Shown here: piece by piece, positions 1-7,808 of the stretch
How positions within the stretch are numbered: position 1 is the stretch's first letter
Layout of the letters: each line of letters opens with the position of its first letter
Virus record (IMG/VR): IMGVR_UViG_2648501165_000010
Length of the DNA: 7,808 nucleotides
Reading direction: 5' to 3' (one strand)
Source of the DNA: a virus
Lineage: Duplodnaviria > Heunggongvirae > Uroviricota > Caudoviricetes
Notes under the pieces: generated by a model
What the model saw: only the letters and a program-made list of their open reading frames with translations
Told to the model about the DNA's origin: nothing
The model's database searches: none
Made by a program: the position numbers and the translations under genes

Positions 1-309
1 CGCTTCACGCGTATCGTGTTTCACATCCTCGATCTCACGTAACGCCGCACGACGACCAGTTTTAAAGTTCGTATCCAGCTGACCGATAATGGTTGCGCTA
101 ATCGCATTAATTTCTGACGTAAACGCGGACAGCGCAGGCTGATTACGCAGTACCTGTTCGATCTTCGCTTTCTAGGAAGCCTCACATTCACCATCTGCAT
201 AGGCCACCAGGTAGGCGGCGTTAATCACCACCTGTGCCAGATCGCGTTTTTCAAACTTTTTAATTTCCGTTGCCGCTCTGCGGGCTTTTTTACCAAAAAT
301 ACCAAACAT
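1..309 (-). CDS. TerB-like late-region protein, 3' partial, interrupted by an in-frame TAG at 172-174
   Basis: ATG at 307-309 with AAGGAA about 8 nt upstream. Reads MFGIFGKKARRAATEIKKFEKRDLAQVVINAAYLVAYADGECEAS (45 codons, 175-309), then TAG, then the same frame stays open for 57 more codons (KAKIEQVLRNQPALSAFTSEINAISATIIGQLDTNFKTGRRAALREIEDVKHDTREA) to the window edge. The AYADGE...EKAKIE pattern resembles the TerB family by recall only. The track ORF start at 456 is an upstream in-frame extension without a better RBS. Confidence 0.5.
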
Positions 310-479
310 CGTGACGTTCCTTTGGGTGGGTGAGCCAACGCCCGGGAGCGATCTGCCCACAGAGAAAGTCACACTGACCACTCCGTAAGCTCCCCCCCGA
401 AAGGCTCTGTGGTTGGTATGCGCCGGGCGTGGCGCGGATACAAAAAAGGTCCGCAAAAGCGAGCGAGGGAAAATAAGTG

Positions 480-903: not shown

Positions 904-979
904 TGGACCACCACCGGGGACTCGAACCTCGCACACTCAACTTAAAGGGTTGACGCTCTTTCCTGATGGCTAGTGGCGG
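904..979 (-). tRNA. Atypical tRNA-like gene with encoded CCA; anticodon loop CCTTTAA (UUU with C33), weak D-arm; possibly degenerate
   Basis: Acceptor CCGCCAC/GTGGTGG pairs with one G-U, T-loop TTCGAGT, anticodon stem TCAAC/GTTGA, discriminator T then CCA. The D-stem does not pair canonically and one T-stem pair is A-C. Confidence 0.35.
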
Positions 980-1185: not shown

Positions 1186-1214
1186 AATATATGCCTTTCA
1201 ATCTACTTTTGCAA
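1186..1214 (-). promoter_or_regulatory. Candidate late promoter (pR'-like) overlapping the stop codon of the Q-like gene
   Basis: Minus strand reads TTGCAA, a 17-nt spacer, then TATATT, about 45-70 nt upstream of the terminator. This geometry matches lambdoid pR'/qut/tR' regions. Confidence 0.4.
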
Positions 1215-1887
1215 CACTTTGCTTTGAAAATGCCGCCTTTTGTTTTGAACGTGTTCTCATTACAAATAATAAAGCCTCACTATCCAGTCGGTGAAAAATG
1301 TGTTTCATTGCAACCCAGTGACGAGTAAATGTTTTGGACCAGTTTTTAGTTGTCACTCCCGCCAGTAATGCCAGCTCCTGATATTCATAACCTTCCCCAC
1401 CAAAAAGTTCTGCTTTTACTGCCTGCGCCGCCAGCCAGATTAATTTTTTCAGGCGTTCCTGCGTTTTCCCAGCAATTTTTCTGGTACCGGATTGAGTATT
1501 AAATTCATTCCACGCCCACTGTGTTATCGCGATCTGATATTCCCAACAAATACTCCCGCTGTAACACCACAACAACCAGGCTTTATGATGTTCTTCAAGA
1601 GACAGAACAGCCCGCCGCCACGATGATGTCGAAAACTCAACCGGACTGACCAGAGGAATTGACGTCACCTTCGCCAGCGATTGCTTTCCCGGGATTGGTG
1701 GATTATCCCGCGTTATCATTTTTCCAGTCACTTCATCGCGGTACCGGATTTTTTTTCGCCTGTAACGCCCTGTATCGAACATGGCATTCTCCTGCCAGGC
1801 TTCAAGCTGACCTTTTGTTGCCCCACTCAAATCAGCGGTGGCGATAATGAGCTGCTCACGCACAAACTGTAAATAGTGGTTATTCAT
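1198..1887 (-). CDS. Putative late-gene antiterminator, Q-family-like (229 aa), assigned mainly by position
   Basis: ORF directly downstream of rusA with an ATGA stop/start overlap and GGAG 6 nt upstream of the ATG at 1885-1887. It is followed by the promoter, terminator and tRNA cluster. The track's start at 1893 is a GTG two codons further upstream. No similarity to lambda Q was recognised. Confidence 0.5.
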   Translation of the reverse strand: MNNHYLQFVREQLIIATADLSGATKGQLEAWQENAMFDTGRYRRKKIRYRDEVTGKMITRDNPPIPGKQSLAKVTSIPLVSPVEFSTSSWRRAVLSLEEHHKAWLLWCYSGSICWEYQIAITQWAWNEFNTQSGTRKIAGKTQERLKKLIWLAAQAVKAELFGGEGYEYQELALLAGVTTKNWSKTFTRHWVAMKHIFHRLDSEALLFVMRTRSKQKAAFSKQSVAKVD

Positions 1888-2249
1888 GCGCACTCCAGTT
1901 CTGTGATTTTTATCCCCAGCCGCCCACCAGGAACGAGCTGACCGCGCACAATATTGATTTCATCAAACTGCTCGTCGTCTATGAGAAGTCCGGCATGCGT
2001 CAGCACATCCAGTGGTGCTTTCAGGATATTGTCCAGGTCACGACGGCGCTTATCCGGTGGCTCTGCAATAATCTTTATCACCAGCCTTCCGGACAGGTTT
2101 AATTTCAGCCGCTGCTGGCGAACAATTAGCGCCACATCACGGCGATAACGCTTTCCGGCTTCCGAGATGAAATACGTATTGCCATGACGTCGCCAGTAGG
2201 TATTCACCGTCGGCGGGTAAGGCAAAACAAATTCTATCCGTTCAGTCAT
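1884..2249 (-). CDS. rusA: Holliday-junction resolvase RusA (121 aa)
   Basis: MTERIEFVLPYPPTVNTYWRRHG...DKRRRDLDNILKAPLDVLTHAGLLIDDEQF...GGRLGIKITE matches the RusA family (catalytic D-x-D-N region) by recall. The start ATG abuts the stop of the upstream gene. Confidence 0.9.
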   Translation of the reverse strand: MTERIEFVLPYPPTVNTYWRRHGNTYFISEAGKRYRRDVALIVRQQRLKLNLSGRLVIKIIAEPPDKRRRDLDNILKAPLDVLTHAGLLIDDEQFDEINIVRGQLVPGGRLGIKITELECA

Positions 2250-2519
2250 TCATGCTTTCCACTTCAGGACACCCGAATTTCTCGCGTGCATTAAAAAACG
2301 AATCAGCAACAACAGCTGGCTGCCGTGTTTTTCTTCAAAATCTTTTACCCCGGCGTGCAGTTCGTTATGACATTTACGGCACAGCGGAATAACAAACAAA
2401 TCATCAGCCTTTGTTCCCATCCCTCCCAGTCCATGACCAATGATGTGATGCGGATCATCTGCCTGATTACCGCACGTCATGCATTTCTGCGTTTTTACCC
2501 AGCGCGTGTATACAGGCAT
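2250..2519 (-). CDS. Small Cys/His zinc-ribbon (HNH-like) protein, paralogous to the C-terminal module of the 2603-3505 gene; YbcO/DUF1364-like by recall
   Basis: MPVYTRWVKTQKCMTCGNQADDPHHIIGHGLGGMGTKADDLFVIPLCRKCHNELHAG... The open frame continues upstream to the gap at 2592 with homology to the ydfU-like internal region (VVSIAVDPESP versus VVSITVDPESP), so the true 5' end may lie in the gap. Confidence 0.5.
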   Translation of the reverse strand: MPVYTRWVKTQKCMTCGNQADDPHHIIGHGLGGMGTKADDLFVIPLCRKCHNELHAGVKDFEEKHGSQLLLLIRFLMHARNSGVLKWKA

Positions 2520-2592
2520 CTCTTCCCGTTGTGGTTTCTGGCGCTGGAGATACTGAGCCGGTGACTCCGGATCAACGGCAATGCTGACCACC

Positions 2593-2602
2593 NNNNNNNN
2601 NN
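2593..2602. other. Assembly gap (10 N) of unknown true length, between two paralogous zinc modules
   Basis: Run of n characters. The reading frame of the conserved domain changes across the gap. Confidence 0.95.
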
Positions 2603-3505
2603 TGCTTTTGTTCCCATTCCGCCCTGCCCGTGACCAATCAGATGATGCGGATCGTCGGCTGGCATACCGCAGCAAGCACACGGCTGTGTCTTAACCCAAC
2701 GTGTGTATTTCTCCTTAACCCAGCGGCGACGTTTAGGCAGCTTCATGAAAGATTCCGGAGACTCTGGATCAACGGTGATGCTTACCACCGTCTTTTCCTG
2801 TGGTGATTTTTGTTGCTGGTGGGCGTAAGGCAACGGTGCAAGATTTTTTGTGCGTTGTTTCAATATGCTGGTGGCGGTCTGCTCTCCCGGTACGATGTCG
2901 CTTTCGCGGTACACCGAGCAGATTTTTTCCGCTGGTAATCCCAGCGAACGACGCGATACAGCCTCAGGTAGTGCATCCACCACCTGATTGCAGACCGCCC
3001 ACCAGGATAATTCAGCCAAAGATAATTCCCGCTCCTGCGTACCGCTTATTGCGTGACGGATGACGTCAATCACCCATGCTGTCAGATTTTGTTGAGCAAG
3101 CAGCTCCAGTGATTCCGATGTCTGGTCACGCAGTTGGTTGTCGCAGTGCCAGCACAACACCATTGCGCCGGTACCATAACGGTGAATGACTGTTTCAGTG
3201 TGATGGTAATCGCCATTAGGCCACTGGCAGGATGTAACATGACGTAATAGCCAGTCGGACAATGCGCCAACGCCGCCAGCAGCACGAATCACCCGTTCGT
3301 TACTAAAAAACGGCAGCAATGTTTTGTCTTCCGCCAGCGGCTGGCGAACGGCAGGAACGACTCCGGATGGCAGATTACGCATGCTTTTTGGTTCCGGTTC
3401 CACCAGCACTCGAGGATTATGAAATATCTGTATGGATTCACGGCCCGGCTTAAGGACCACCAGCCCAAGCTCAGGCACCAGAACAGGTCTAAGTAATACC
3501 CGCAC
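2603..3505 (-). CDS. ydfU: YdfU-like DUF968 prophage protein, 3' end truncated by the gap
   Basis: Long open frame ending in ...WVKTQPCACCGMPADDPHHLIGHGQGGMGTKA at the gap. A GTG start at 3503-3505 with GGAGG just upstream would give about the 349-aa size I recall for K-12 YdfU. Alternative starts are GTG 3544 (track) and ATG 3385. Confidence 0.6.
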
Positions 3506-3506
3506 G

Positions 3507-3785
3507 TTACCTCCAGATCCGTTGCTGGAAAGTGCGGGACGCACGTGGTGGGCGTTCGGAATAAGGCAGCCTGACAGAGATTATCCAGTGCCGATAGTCG
3601 AGACTGAGAGCTTTCTTAACCTCGAACCCGCGCCTGCGGTAAGAATGAATCAGCCATTCGGCCTGTTCTGCAGTGCATGGAGGGTGCTGGAACCATTCAG
3701 ACTTGAATGCGTGAGAATACCGCCCGTGCGTGCAGGCAAGAACGGGCGAATTATCAGAATTGTAATATTTTGCGTTGCGTGCCAT
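3507..3785 (-). CDS. Hypothetical prophage protein (92 aa), no family recognised
   Basis: ATG with GGAG upstream; TAA stop one nucleotide before the proposed ydfU-like GTG; same orientation as its neighbours. Confidence 0.55.
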   Translation of the reverse strand: MARNAKYYNSDNSPVLACTHGRYSHAFKSEWFQHPPCTAEQAEWLIHSYRRRGFEVKKALSLDYRHWIISVRLPYSERPPRASRTFQQRIWR

Positions 3786-3851
3786 CGGTTTTCTCCGGTG
3801 GCACGGTGTTACTCAGCGGGAGTTCAGCCCCGCGCAAGATTGTAGATGAGT

Positions 3852-4103
3852 TTATTCTCCTGAAAAAGCAGAAAAGCCAGCTTTTATTCCGATCTCTTTC
3901 AATGCCTGTAATGAAGTGACAAACTCACCTTCGCGCAAGATAAATCCGTCCGTGACCCGAGCATCCACAAAATTAATTAACGCAGCCCCATTCTTTCGCA
4001 AACACATAATGCGGTAATGACTAACAAGATTTCCATTTTCAACGCACACAGCATAGAGGCCATCTTCACAAAAAATTTTACGCAGTTCTTCGATGTTCAT
4101 CAT
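3852..4103 (-). CDS. rem: Rem-like small prophage protein (83 aa)
   Basis: 83-aa ORF with GGAAGGA SD, at the position and size of K-12 Qin rem (between ydfU and hokD) as I recall it. Confidence 0.65.
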   Translation of the reverse strand: MMNIEELRKIFCEDGLYAVCVENGNLVSHYRIMCLRKNGAALINFVDARVTDGFILREGEFVTSLQALKEIGIKAGFSAFSGE

Positions 4104-4181
4104 CAGAATCCTTCCGGATAATTAGCTCTCCCCTTTAAGGGACCATCCCTCTTATCCCTGCGCGCTACTTAAGTATTTTTG

Positions 4182-4211
4182 ATTCTATTCCGGCGCCGTC
4201 CGGAACTTCAA
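4182..4211 (-). promoter_or_regulatory. Candidate rem promoter with a palindromic spacer (possible operator)
   Basis: Minus strand TTGAAG, 18-nt spacer, TAGAAT. The spacer 4188-4205 is the inverted repeat TTCCGG-N6-CCGGAA. Confidence 0.35.
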
Positions 4212-4225
4212 ACGCGTTGAAAATA

Positions 4226-4249
4226 AAAACAAAAACCCGCCGAAGCGGG
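4226..4249 (-). terminator. Intrinsic terminator ending the relB-relE-hokD transcript
   Basis: Minus strand CCCGC-TTCG-GCGGG followed by TTTTTGTTTTT, about 70 nt after the hokD stop. Confidence 0.7.
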
Positions 4250-4319
4250 TTAAGTGCGGGTGCGTTGAGGATGCCTGACACATCAGAGGTGGCGAGGGAT
4301 TTCTCCCCCGCCGGGTCTC

Positions 4320-4475
4320 TTACTCCTCAGGTTCGTAAGCTGTGAAGACAGCGACCTCCGTCTGGCCGGTTCGGATTCGTACCTCGCAGAGGTCTTTCCT
4401 CGTTACCAGTGCCGTCACAATGACGGTTAAACAGATGACGATCAGAGCGATTAATATCGCCTTTTGCTGCTTCAT
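4320..4475 (-). CDS. hokD: Hok-family membrane toxin HokD (RelF), 51 aa
   Basis: Translation MKQQKAILIALIVICLTVIVTALVTRKDLCEVRIRTGQTEVAVFTAYEPEE with AGGAGAAG SD. The six-frame track misses it because it lists only the antisense ORF. Confidence 0.9.
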   Translation of the reverse strand: MKQQKAILIALIVICLTVIVTALVTRKDLCEVRIRTGQTEVAVFTAYEPEE

Positions 4476-4546
4476 AGCCTGCTTCTCCTGTCAACGCAAA
4501 GCAGAAGTGTCACCTTCGGTGCGAAACAGAGATGTCATGCTTTGGT

Positions 4547-4834
4547 TCAGAGAATGCGTTTGACCGCCTCGCTATATACTTCCGAGCGTTCTCTTTTCCC
4601 AACAGAAATCACGAAAACGACAACTTTCTCGTCTATAACCTGGTATACAAGGCGATAGCCTGAAGACCGGAGCTTAATCTTGTAACAATCAGGCATACCA
4701 CGGAGCTTGTTTGCTTCAATCCGGGGTGACTCAAGTACTTCAACCAGCTTCTTTTTCAACTGTTCACGTACCGTCGAGCCCAGCTTTCGCCATTCCTTTA
4801 GTGCCCGCTCGTCAAAATCCAGAAAATACGCCAT
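4547..4834 (-). CDS. relE: mRNA interferase toxin RelE (95 aa)
   Basis: MAYFLDFDERALKEWRKLG...VISVGKRERSEVYSEAVKRIL is essentially the K-12 RelE sequence by recall. The start overlaps the relB stop. Confidence 0.95.
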   Translation of the reverse strand: MAYFLDFDERALKEWRKLGSTVREQLKKKLVEVLESPRIEANKLRGMPDCYKIKLRSSGYRLVYQVIDEKVVVFVISVGKRERSEVYSEAVKRIL

Positions 4835-5073
4835 CAGAGTTCATCCAGCGTCACACGTACTGGCTTAGGATTACGAAGCCGTTCTTTCACTATCTCCACA
4901 AGTTCAGCATCTTCATCACTCAGGAGTGTCTGTTTGAACGGCAAGCGTTCATTGTCAGCGATATACTCGAGCATGAGACGAAGCGCTTCAGAAGGAGTTA
5001 CACCCATTTTTTCAAGCGCGGCGTAAGAACGCGCTTTAAGTTCATCGTCAATACGCAGGTTAATGCTACCCAT
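4834..5073 (-). CDS. relB: Antitoxin RelB (79 aa)
   Basis: MGSINLRIDDELKARSYA...RNPKPVRVTLDEL matches K-12 RelB by recall. Confidence 0.95.
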   Translation of the reverse strand: MGSINLRIDDELKARSYAALEKMGVTPSEALRLMLEYIADNERLPFKQTLLSDEDAELVEIVKERLRNPKPVRVTLDEL

Positions 5074-5084
5074 GTCTTACACCT

Positions 5085-5137
5085 CTTGTAATTACAAATG
5101 TCATTACAAGTATCGCACTACAACATGCTTAGGGCAA
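5085..5137 (-). promoter_or_regulatory. relBE promoter and relO-type palindromic operator
   Basis: Minus strand TTGCCC, 17-nt spacer, GATACT, followed by the near-palindrome CTTGTAATGACATTTGTAATTACAAG (5085-5110), AGAGGTG SD, and the relB ATG. Confidence 0.7.
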
Positions 5138-5403
5138 GTCACGAAGGAAGTCAGAAAGTAGTCGTAAGAACGGTGATCACTGTCCGCTTTGTGCCAGGAG
5201 CAGCCATTGCTAAGTCCATCCTGTATTGTGCAGGTCAGCTCGTTTTTAAAGAGTCCGGCCATCATCTTACTGGTACAGACACCATATACTTTGTGACGGT
5301 CAGGCTACATATGCACAACTCAACTTATTCATCTATTTTTTGCTTTAGCATGTCAGTGTTGCTTTCTCGTCGGCGGGTGAGCGGTGACCTGACCTGTCGA
5401 TAA
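5098..5403 (+). CDS. ydfV: YdfV-like ORF (101 aa), doubtful as a real gene
   Basis: Position and length match the ydfV ORF annotated in K-12 Qin as I recall it. The ATG lies inside the relO palindrome and has no SD. Confidence 0.3.
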   Translation: MSLQVSHYNMLRASHEGSQKVVVRTVITVRFVPGAAIAKSILYCAGQLVFKESGHHLTGTDTIYFVTVRLHMHNSTYSSIFCFSMSVLLSRRRVSGDLTCR

Positions 5404-5555
5404 AGGAACGTAACACGTTTTATGCAACACCCGCATGCGGCAGAAAATTATTGCCGAACGTTTACCCCTGTCAACAAGCTTTACTTTCTGAGGCGCGCCA
5501 GCCCGCGAGGAAAACAATCTGAACATCAAACAATTAATGACACAAGAAATACGAT

Positions 5556-5582
5556 TAAAGATTTTTTTGTGCATGCCGATAG
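5556..5582 (+). promoter_or_regulatory. Sigma-28 (FliA) class-3 flagellar promoter for flxA
   Basis: TAAAGATT, 11-nt spacer, GCCGATAG against the consensus TAAAGTTT-N11-GCCGATAA, 24 nt upstream of the flxA ATG. Confidence 0.7.
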
Positions 5583-5605
5583 TGCTTTTTTAAAAGGAGA
5601 AATCT

Positions 5606-5938
5606 ATGTCTGTCACAATTCAGGGAAATACCTCAACCGTTATTTCAAACAACTCCGCCCCGGAAGGAACATCAGAAATAGCCAAAATCACAAGACAAAT
5701 TCAGGTGCTGACTGAAAAGCTTGGGAAAATCTCATCGGAAGAGGGGATGACGACACAGCAGAAAAAAGAAATGGCTGCATTGGTACAGAAGCAAATTGAA
5801 AGCCTCTGGGCTCAACTGGAGCAGTTGTTAAGGCAGCAGGCAGAGAAAAAGAATGAAGACGCGACAGTTCAGCCTGATAAAAAAGAAGAGAAAAAAGACG
5901 ATACAAATACCGCTGGCACCATTGATATTTACGTCTAA
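5606..5938 (+). CDS. flxA: FlxA (110 aa), FliA-regulated prophage protein
   Basis: MSVTIQGNTSTVISNNSAPEG...TAGTIDIYV with AAGGAG SD matches K-12 FlxA by recall. The middle is coiled-coil-like and the tail is charged (KKEEKKDD). Confidence 0.9.
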   Translation: MSVTIQGNTSTVISNNSAPEGTSEIAKITRQIQVLTEKLGKISSEEGMTTQQKKEMAALVQKQIESLWAQLEQLLRQQAEKKNEDATVQPDKKEEKKDDTNTAGTIDIYV

Positions 5939-5952
5939 GTGACAGCCGTATT

Positions 5953-5977
5953 GTGGCCCTCATCGGGCCACTTTTCG
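5953..5977 (+). terminator. Intrinsic terminator after flxA
   Basis: GTGGCCC-TCATC-GGGCCAC followed by TTTTCG. Confidence 0.6.
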
Positions 5978-6254
5978 CCATCAGCCTTTTCTTTAAAGAC
6001 ATATTATCTTTGTATCATTTCTGATAGTTAACATTACAAGATATAAGTAATGGACGCACTCCCAATTAGTCTATTTAAATCGCCACGAGTTTAACTGACA
6101 ACCCATGATCAATTATGAATTGCAACTATTTCTGTAGTCACTTTTGTGGGGACAGTCCACAAAACTGCCAACTTCCGCTTCTTGCTCTTAGCGGACATTA
6201 GCATAGGCTATTTACCATAACGCCTCATTACGCGCACCGCCCAGACTGACTCAG

Positions 6255-6320
6255 CGCGTTTCTGGCATATCCCCGGTAAAACAAGTAACAAACCACCCGA
6301 AAATGAACACCAGAAACGCG
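6255..6320. repeat. 11-bp perfect inverted repeat (CGCGTTTCTGG / CCAGAAACGCG) separated by 44 bp, about 55 bp beyond the transposase stop
   Basis: Direct reading of 6255-6265 against 6310-6320. Confidence 0.6.
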
Positions 6321-6329
6321 ACTTAAGAA

Positions 6330-7770
6330 TCTACCCTATGAATGGATATGCACTCAACCGAATCGATCTTGGTTTCAATCTTTTTTATCGGGATCAGGCT
6401 TCTTTTTAGGTAACTTCGGGGGCTTAACTTGCTGATGACTTTGCGTTCGGCGCGTAAGCCAGGGATGGTCAGCTTTAGGTTTAACATAGTATTTTGAGCG
6501 TAAATCAATACGGGCATTATCCACTCGTTCATGGACACTCTTTTCATCATCCAGTGGTATAGGCTCCGGGCCATCAACATACTTTTCCCAGCCCGGCGCT
6601 TTCCCGTCATACAGAACGTTAATTTCACCGTCAAAGTTCTCGCATACAGTAACAACCGAATGCCTAAGTCGATATCCCCGGCCCTCACTGCGTACCTGAA
6701 ACGCACTGCTTTTGTACTGGAAAGTGAGATTTTTAGACAGAACGCGCTTCGCCTGTAGGCTGAAGATATAACCCAGTTCCTCTTCAGAATGGTGCACATC
6801 AAGATGAGCATTATCAGTAGTACGAGGCGACGTAGCGAACCGGTTGTTATAGGCTTCAATAAAGGTCGGCAACCATGCATTTGCTGTTTCAATATCACTG
6901 ATATTCTGAAGCCGCATTTCTTTGACCAGCCTGTCCTGTAGTGTCTGATTGGCGCGCTCTACCCGCCCTTTTGCCTGCGGGCTGTTGGCATGGATTGGCT
7001 CGATGCCCAGTGTCTTTATCGCACGAGTGAACTGGGTCAGCTCACCTTCCCGCTCTGGGTTATTTACCCTGAATATACTGTGTCTATCAGAGTAGAGAGC
7101 GAGCGGTACGCCATGATCATTAAGGTAACCCCGGAGGGTTTCCATGTAAGCCCGGGTTGTTTCAGCAGGCACAAAACGCAACGCCATCAACGCACTGGTG
7201 GCATCATCAATGAAAACGATCAGTGTACATCTGGGGCCTCGATTTTCAAACCAGTCATGAGGTGAGCCATCAATCTGGATCAGTTCACCGTAAGATGGTC
7301 GTCGCATGCGGCGTTGATATATACGGGCAATTTTACGACGGCGTTCACGCCATAACCCCTCTTCTATCATCCACTTTCTGAGAGTTTCAACGGATAAAGA
7401 TAAACCGTGTATCTCGCGCAATTTTTCGCACGCAAACGTAGGTCCAAAATCAGCGTAACGGCCTTTGAGGAGTGAAATTACTGTTGCTCTGAATTCAGTA
7501 GAAAAGGAATTATTAGGACGCTTTCCACGTCGGTGGGAAACCAGACCAGAAGGCCCTTCATTTCTATACCGTTGCACCAGACGTTTAACCTGCCGAATAG
7601 AAATGCCAATGCGTGCCGCAGCTTGTTCCTGAATAATCTGAAGTCGGTGGAGTTCCTTATGACTCATCGTAACAGTCTCTTTGATCATGAAAAATCCCCC
7701 AGAGAATTGTCTGGGGACATTTTAGAATGGTTCAAAGGGGACATTACAGCTTGGTGTTAACAATAGCCTG
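6330..7770 (-). mobile_element. IS-like element carrying the transposase; ends not resolved
   Basis: Transposase gene present, but no terminal inverted repeats could be matched between the left and right flanks inside the window. Confidence 0.25.
6375..7688 (-). CDS. DDE-type transposase/integrase (437 aa), N-terminal HTH plus rve-like core; IS481/ISNCY-like, family unresolved
   Basis: N-terminus IGISIRQVKRLVQRY looks like a helix-turn-helix. Candidate DDE residues are in QIDGSPHDW, LYSDRHSIF and SPQAKGRVERANQTL. The SD GGGGGA lies inside a 6-bp hairpin (CCCCAG/CTGGGG, 7697-7716). Confidence 0.85.
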   Translation of the reverse strand: MIKETVTMSHKELHRLQIIQEQAAARIGISIRQVKRLVQRYRNEGPSGLVSHRRGKRPNNSFSTEFRATVISLLKGRYADFGPTFACEKLREIHGLSLSVETLRKWMIEEGLWRERRRKIARIYQRRMRRPSYGELIQIDGSPHDWFENRGPRCTLIVFIDDATSALMALRFVPAETTRAYMETLRGYLNDHGVPLALYSDRHSIFRVNNPEREGELTQFTRAIKTLGIEPIHANSPQAKGRVERANQTLQDRLVKEMRLQNISDIETANAWLPTFIEAYNNRFATSPRTTDNAHLDVHHSEEELGYIFSLQAKRVLSKNLTFQYKSSAFQVRSEGRGYRLRHSVVTVCENFDGEINVLYDGKAPGWEKYVDGPEPIPLDDEKSVHERVDNARIDLRSKYYVKPKADHPWLTRRTQSHQQVKPPKLPKKKPDPDKKD

Positions 7771-7808
7771 CTTCTCCGTGCCTTTCGGCACGTAAGAGGC
7801 TAACCTAC

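Follow-up and report, generated by a model that had tools for sequence, protein, structure and literature searches.

The window, that is, the whole 7,808-nt stretch of DNA analysed here, carries its genes of interest on the minus strand and flxA on the plus strand, and is interrupted by several runs of N. Its features, from the right-hand end to the left, are:

6375-7688, minus strand: ISNCY/IS1202-like transposase remnant ORF (437 aa, HTH and rve-like domains)
5606-5938, plus strand: flxA
4834-5073, minus strand: relB
4547-4834, minus strand: relE
4320-4475, minus strand: hokD
3852-4103, minus strand: rem
3507-3785, minus strand: 92-aa ORF, PHROG 1212 (unknown function), without a Pfam family
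2603-3544, minus strand: 5′ 314 codons of a ydfU-like ORF (DUF968), running into a 10-N run
2603-2789, minus strand: overlap copy 2, K-12-type allele VVSITVDPESP…GMGTKA
2593-2602, no strand: 10-N scaffold join, the flanks of which do not abut and step back 187 nt in homologous coordinates
2406-2592, minus strand: overlap copy 1, D-type allele VVSIAVDPESP…GMGTKA
2250-2592, minus strand: 3′ 113 codons and stop of a second DUF968 allele, rusA-linked and of the STEC-prophage type (D-type)
1884-2249, minus strand: rusA (Holliday junction resolvase; Pfam RusA, 56.5 bits; RefSeq annotation in reference locus L001)
1198-1893, minus strand: antiterminator Q (Phage_antiter_Q type; Pfam, 303.7 bits; annotated in L001)
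904-979, minus strand: tRNA-Lys, anticodon ttt (ARAGORN)
816-890: phage tRNA-Arg, which together with tRNA-Lys makes up the phage tRNA genes at 816-979
578-652, 780-789 and 1011-1020: further N runs
~1-456, minus strand: TerB-family (tellurite-resistance-like) frame with an in-frame stop (TAG on the plus strand near 174)

The gene rusA adjoins the D-type DUF968 fragment on the downstream side, and antiterminator Q lies on the same contig as both. RefSeq lists the counterpart of the transposase ORF as a pseudogene, an incomplete transposase of the ISNCY/IS1202-like (ISEsa1) type; homology to K-12 (ydfW region) reaches only the 3′ end of this ORF, to position 6559, and K-12 therefore retains a mere remnant of it. 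The 92-aa ORF is conserved directly upstream of each DUF968 allele examined, and may be a functional partner of YdfU. The tRNA-Lys gene is situated between tRNA-Arg and a truncated tRNA-Ile, its counterpart in L001 (1967-2042) carries no annotation in the RefSeq record, and it may be a degenerate member of a phage ileZ-argN-argO type cluster. The TerB frame has a counterpart in the matching complete genome (L001, 1274-1702), annotated as a pseudogene that contains an internal stop.

At the N run 2593-2602, the minus-strand ydfU-like frame (2603-3544) terminates with …VVSITVDPESPESFMKLPKRRRWVKEKYTRWVKTQPCACCGMPADDPHHLIGHGQGGMGTKA immediately at the first N, and the other flank (2250-2592, minus strand) reads VVSIAVDPESPAQYLQRQKPQREEMPVYTRWVKTQKCMTCGNQADDPHHIIGHGLGGMGTKADDLFVIPLCRKCHNELH…stop, in a different reading frame. 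In register, 121 of 187 nt (64.7%) and 40 of 62 aa are the same in 2406-2592 and 2603-2789, against a background identity of 24.9±3.3% and a next best value of 38.5% in ungapped comparison with all other 187-nt windows of the sequence; the pair was also picked up by a repeat finder, at a spacing of 197. The original prediction had described these stretches as homologous yet diverged Cys/His modules, with similarity extending upstream of the ATG at 2519 and a frame change across the gap, and in these respects it was accurate, the similarity beginning at the contig end at 2592. It had gone on to read them as two real copies, produced by duplication of the 3′ part of ydfU, with the second copy forming a small gene of its own.

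Of the Pfam families proposed with that reading, DUF968 (PF06147, 171 positions) is matched by both pieces above the curated cut-off of 27.8 bits, each covering part of the profile: the right piece (2603-3544) aligns to positions 1-125 with 167.1 bits and the left piece (2250-2592) to positions 66-169 with 155.9 bits. The HNH assignment holds at the Pfam level for the left piece, with HNHc_6 (PF16784) giving 34.5 bits for this piece and 31.8 bits for the full-length D-type allele at a cut-off of 26.6, and narrowly misses for K-12 YdfU, which scores 26.3 bits. The proposed DUF1364 model (PF07102, YbcO) gives no match to either fragment, even at E≤10, and NCBIfam contains no model for the YdfU/DUF968 family. 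Against PHROG 96 ‘HNH endonuclease’ (334 positions), the right piece aligns to 1-286 (E 3e-141) and the left piece to 226-334 (E 1.8e-56). The Pfam and PHROG placements therefore identify the pieces as two overlapping fragments of one domain rather than two modules of one protein. In an alignment of four full-length alleles (L001-L004), both pieces fit a single-domain architecture and overlap by 62 columns.

The two fragments derive from distinct and ordinary alleles. The right piece is K-12 ydfU: 2603-3800 is 100% identical at the nucleotide level to K-12 strains C600, J53 and ER1709, and 2603-6559 is 99.85% identical to the Qin prophage of C600, in which ydfU runs 147 nt further to its normal 349-aa end. 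In the window, this gene is cut at the contig end straight after …GGMGTKA; its annotated start in the references, MRVLLRPV, corresponds to window position ~3505. Prophages of STEC/EPEC-type strains match the contig made up of the left piece, rusA and Q (1021-2592) at 99.9-100% identity. In STEC-type prophages, a full-length 351-aa DUF968 gene (CFSAN004176 / 2013C-3264 DUF968-rusA-Q type) lies upstream of rusA-Q-tRNA, and the left piece matches its 3′ end at 100%. This allele is typical of STEC/EPEC lineages, e.g. O145, O55:H7, O111 and O103, and has 62% aa identity to K-12 YdfU. Overall identities among the four aligned alleles lie at 80-92%, and conservation is far stronger over the N-terminal ∼250 aa than over the C-terminal HNH part, in which the K-12 and rusA-linked types are about 62-65% identical. 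The change-over in conservation lies near VVSI(A/T)VDPESP, exactly where the left contig begins, and at the sequence level points to a putative mosaic boundary inside the DUF968 gene.

Both contig ends map to the same 184-187 bp of one gene in 13 of 13 gap-free reference loci examined. In locus L001, window position 2592 corresponds to 3709 and window position 2604 to 3524, and an identical pattern of 184-187 nt overlap is present in loci L003-L012 and L014. Under the alternative of a genuine tandem partial duplication, or of a junction formed by unequal or illegitimate inter-prophage recombination, ydfU would be truncated and a 3′ DUF968 fragment would come after it, which might be translated by itself into a small HNH protein; the gap might then hide an IS or another repeat. 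The divergence of the copies speaks for this alternative, in that one sequence has not simply been assembled twice, as does the 89-aa ORF starting at ATG 2519 inside the left piece, which holds a complete HNH core. However, a search of 5,426 complete E. coli genomes with 1884-3544 as query returned no tandem DUF968 arrangement, and hence no gap-free example. The best-matching place, with 90% query coverage, is 1,461 bp long as against 1,661 bp in the query, and therefore holds a single copy. All 120 IMG/VR proviral contigs that contain the 35-mer 2558-2592 continue straight from it into the 5′ part of the gene, and a tandem in uninterrupted sequence occurs in none of them. One module is present in 116 of the 118 tblastn-matched loci from these contigs, the remaining two being a frameshift split and a locus with two copies across an N join (L030). 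Nowhere in these sets were both copies and their junction recovered in uninterrupted sequence, the supposed junction in the window falls exactly on an N join with a second step-back N join 1.8 kb away, and an ordinary full-length allele matches each end at 100%. A real tandem or recombinant junction is accordingly rated as very improbable.

ORFs with the exact sequence of the 89-aa product (2250-2519, minus strand) are called in many assemblies, amounting to 66 blocks of public assemblies, and could be taken as further support for a tandem. In those assemblies, however, a single DUF968 gene is split by a frameshift into ORFs of ∼245 aa and 89 aa (loci L005-L014). An independent 89-aa gene was rejected, as in every called case the ORF corresponds to the second half of one DUF968 gene broken by a frameshift; the split itself could reflect genuine pseudogenisation or homopolymer errors in long-read assemblies. 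The most specific form of the recombinant reading, in which a real prophage junction joins a truncated Qin ydfU through hidden sequence to an 89-aa HNH protein expressed from ATG 2519, is given hardly any weight. If this were true, the 89-aa protein would show a mini-nuclease of the YbcO kind at the moment of its emergence from an ancestor with two domains.

The pieces are fragments of the known ydfU/DUF968 gene that were most probably placed side by side by scaffolding, so that there would be no new duplicated gene at this locus. What had been taken for a duplicated 3′ part of ydfU is a pair of overlapping fragments of one DUF968 domain cut by contig ends, and the supposed small gene belongs to the 3′ third of a DUF968 gene that was cut in the same manner. 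Of the ‘two real copies’, the divergence stands, as this is not one sequence assembled twice, and the tandem does not, as the copies are fragments of two alleles. The right piece is without the active-site helix half because its contig ends there and for no other reason, and the left piece is without the N-terminal two thirds because its contig also ends there.

A milder version of the scaffolding reading holds that the contigs are true neighbours and only the duplication is false. A single mosaic DUF968 gene would then occupy a Qin-type locus, followed by rusA-Q-tRNA; one 187-nt tail would have been extended from a paralogue elsewhere, and the scaffolder, meeting a negative gap, would have written 10 N. 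Qin-type loci with a single DUF968-rusA-Q-tRNA module do exist in the complete genomes of NCTC9699 (L003) and GB089 (L004), and the adjacency of the contigs could therefore be real, with one overlapping tail derived from a paralogue. The DUF968 alleles are visibly mosaic around VVSI(A/T)VDPESP, a synthetic hybrid of the K-12 5′ part and the D-type 3′ part with one overlap copy is in frame, and collapsing the overlap by removal of either copy restores one intact, in-frame 351-aa ORF directly followed by rusA. Yet the combination of a K-12-type 5′ part with this 3′ end and rusA allele is found in no complete E. coli genome; the best match to the single hybrid gene among the 5,426 is 90.4% identical, leaving that candidate unsupported. 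In the nearest relatives of contig 2603-7808, at 99.9% over 5.2 kb (e.g. strain 7/2), ydfU reaches its normal 349-aa end and is followed by ydfT-cspF-cspB, not rusA. We regard true adjacency as rather unlikely, albeit far from negligible; being a sub-case of the scaffolding artefact, its weight is contained in that of the artefact and is not additional to it.

The remaining N runs of the window bear on the same question. Two of them are collinear with known prophages: at 578-652, 75 N represent 60 nt of a 14EC047-type prophage (L015), and at 1011-1020, 10 N represent 64 nt in complete genomes (L001) and interrupt a tRNA-Ile gene. The lengths of N runs are therefore not true gap sizes here, as had been suspected for the 10 N at 2593-2602. 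At the gaps 780-789 and 2593-2602, which are 1.8 kb apart, the coordinates step back and one prophage type gives way to another. The 14EC047-type prophage, with its TerB pseudogene, tRNA-Ile and then a ninG-phosphatase-Q933-like module, is collinear with segments 1-577 and 653-779. In complete genomes, 653-779 lies between tRNA-Ile and a different Q gene, which itself comes after ninG and a phosphatase gene. In the window, the same segment runs into 780-789 and from there into the tRNA-Arg of the rusA-Q prophage type, which means that pieces from at least three different prophage settings are joined in this scaffold. The tRNA/Q-upstream region is consequently present twice in diverged form in the flanks 455-779 and 790-1052, with conserved blocks that are 83-97% identical.

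Such joins recur elsewhere. DUF968 occupies up to 9 places per complete genome, the tRNA-Q-rusA module has up to 17 occurrences, and ‘DUF968 … partial’ entries from short contigs make up many clusters in the protein database, each counting hundreds to thousands of proteins; the gene is therefore a habitual contig breakpoint. In L013 (GCA_006238665.1, SQBP01000708.1), 24 ten-N joins within 11 kb chain rusA/DUF968 paralogues, and in L030 (IMGVR_UViG_2698536677_000006) a single N at 3166 joins two paralogous rusA-DUF968 segments. A run of 10 N is a conventional minimum placeholder in several scaffolders. Taken together, the flanks of the join are ordinary alleles, they overlap in homologous coordinates, and the same behaviour recurs at other N joins.

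With regard to the source of the two alleles, the sequenced material might have held two strains, through mixed culture or contamination, given that the left allele is typical of STEC/EPEC and the right contig is K-12/commensal-like. However, a 100% K-12-type ydfU is also found in multi-prophage STEC genomes such as O26 RM10386, 97-3250 and 2013C-4991, which have 4-8 DUF968 places each. Several alleles can thus reside in a single strain without any mixture. An indirect instance of allele co-occurrence is strain 2013C-4991, in which the K-12-type ydfU lies at 0.976 Mb and segment 653-779 at 0.243 Mb. A mixture is the least probable of the readings considered, with only a slight chance of being correct.

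We therefore favour, with high confidence, a scaffolding artefact in which two truncated DUF968 alleles from different prophages were chained and no tandem exists; this confidence applies to the joint reading, including the predicted function of the family. Contig 2603-7808 would represent a Qin-type prophage (ISNCY remnant, flxA, relBE, hokD, rem, ydfU) and contig 1021-2592 the rusA-Q-tRNA module of a STEC-type lambdoid prophage, so that the alleles would belong to different lambdoid prophages of the source strain. Both contigs would break inside the multi-copy DUF968 gene, and chaining with a 10-N placeholder would generate the apparent 187-nt diverged ‘duplication’. In the actual genome, both alleles are most probably intact and of ordinary length (∼350 aa), with a single HNH domain apiece. 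The wider implication is that lambdoid multi-copy genes (DUF968/ydfU, rusA, Q, the phage tRNA cluster) break draft E. coli/Shigella contigs, and that the chaining of paralogous ends can make N runs look like the sites of diverged tandem duplications and give rise to spurious small genes there.

Although the tandem duplication and its small gene most probably fall away, the nuclease part of the original prediction is retained: the CxxC…DDPHH…CxxCH…H pattern is that of an HNH/His-Me finger, an assignment that is right and already known. The left piece contains a complete predicted core (C37xxC40, D45DPHH49, C71xxC74H75 and H79), and the right piece has the first CxxC pair and DDPHH and is without the CRKxH…H helix half of the motif. 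Judged by these motifs, the predicted active site is complete in the left piece only. For this piece (113 aa), AlphaFold2 run on an alignment of 33 sequences predicts two short strands, then a helix, then more helices (pLDDT 87). Foldseek with this model returns HNH nucleases as top matches with weak E-values, and a profile search with the module retrieves YbcO at E 5.5e-4 and McrA weakly. Across homologues, H48, H49, H75 and H79 are invariant and C37, C40 and C71 nearly invariant; the fourth zinc ligand is Cys in the left allele and His in K-12 YdfU. The predicted ββα arrangement, conserved His residues and zinc site are those of the His-Me finger class, and as modelled the module fits a zinc-stabilised ββα-metal nuclease fold. 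By analogy with the family, the CxxC…CxxC/H zinc site would hold the fold of the nuclease core, one His of DDPHH would presumably serve as general base, and H75/H79 would be ligands of the catalytic metal. A protein of YdfU-type architecture has an N-terminal part of ∼240 aa, followed by the predicted ββα-metal nuclease core. The DUF968 protein is a phage nin-region protein encoded just upstream of rusA or Q. Judged only from its fold and gene neighbourhood, it probably cuts or nicks recombination or replication intermediates, like its closest structural relative, P1 Ref.

These findings place the locus among known systems. DUF968 and DUF1364 form group 7 of the His-Me finger nucleases, with YdfU and YbcO named and RusA and Q noted as neighbours of the group (Jablonska et al. 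2017, PMC5714182), and DUF968 proteins have been described as carrying a zinc-finger HNH C-terminus (PMC4118853). The literature found on the family reports no biochemical activity for YdfU or YbcO. This family of predicted HNH nucleases encoded beside rusA is already catalogued, and its function is a modest question, independent of the window. Compared with the K-12 Qin YdfU (DUF968), the right fragment is the same gene (2603-3800), the left fragment is another allele of the family (DUF968, 156 bits), and the described neighbourhood of rusA and antiterminator Q matches that of the window. K-12 YdfU has CRKHH, whereas the rusA-linked allele has CRKCH; there is otherwise no biological difference, both window genes being truncated by contig ends. 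YbcO (prophage DLP12/82, DUF1364, PDB 3g27) is a 96-aa stand-alone domain, to which DUF968 proteins add the N-terminal ∼240 aa. The RecA-dependent HNH nuclease Ref of phage P1 (PDB 3plw, Pfam RecA_dep_nuc) is without the YdfU N-terminal region, and the YdfU pieces show no significant membership of its family at the sequence level. Finally, with respect to the join itself, the closest parallel is the false segmental duplication known from scaffold joins in draft assemblies of multi-prophage E. coli, where, as here, homologous coordinates step back exactly at the N runs.
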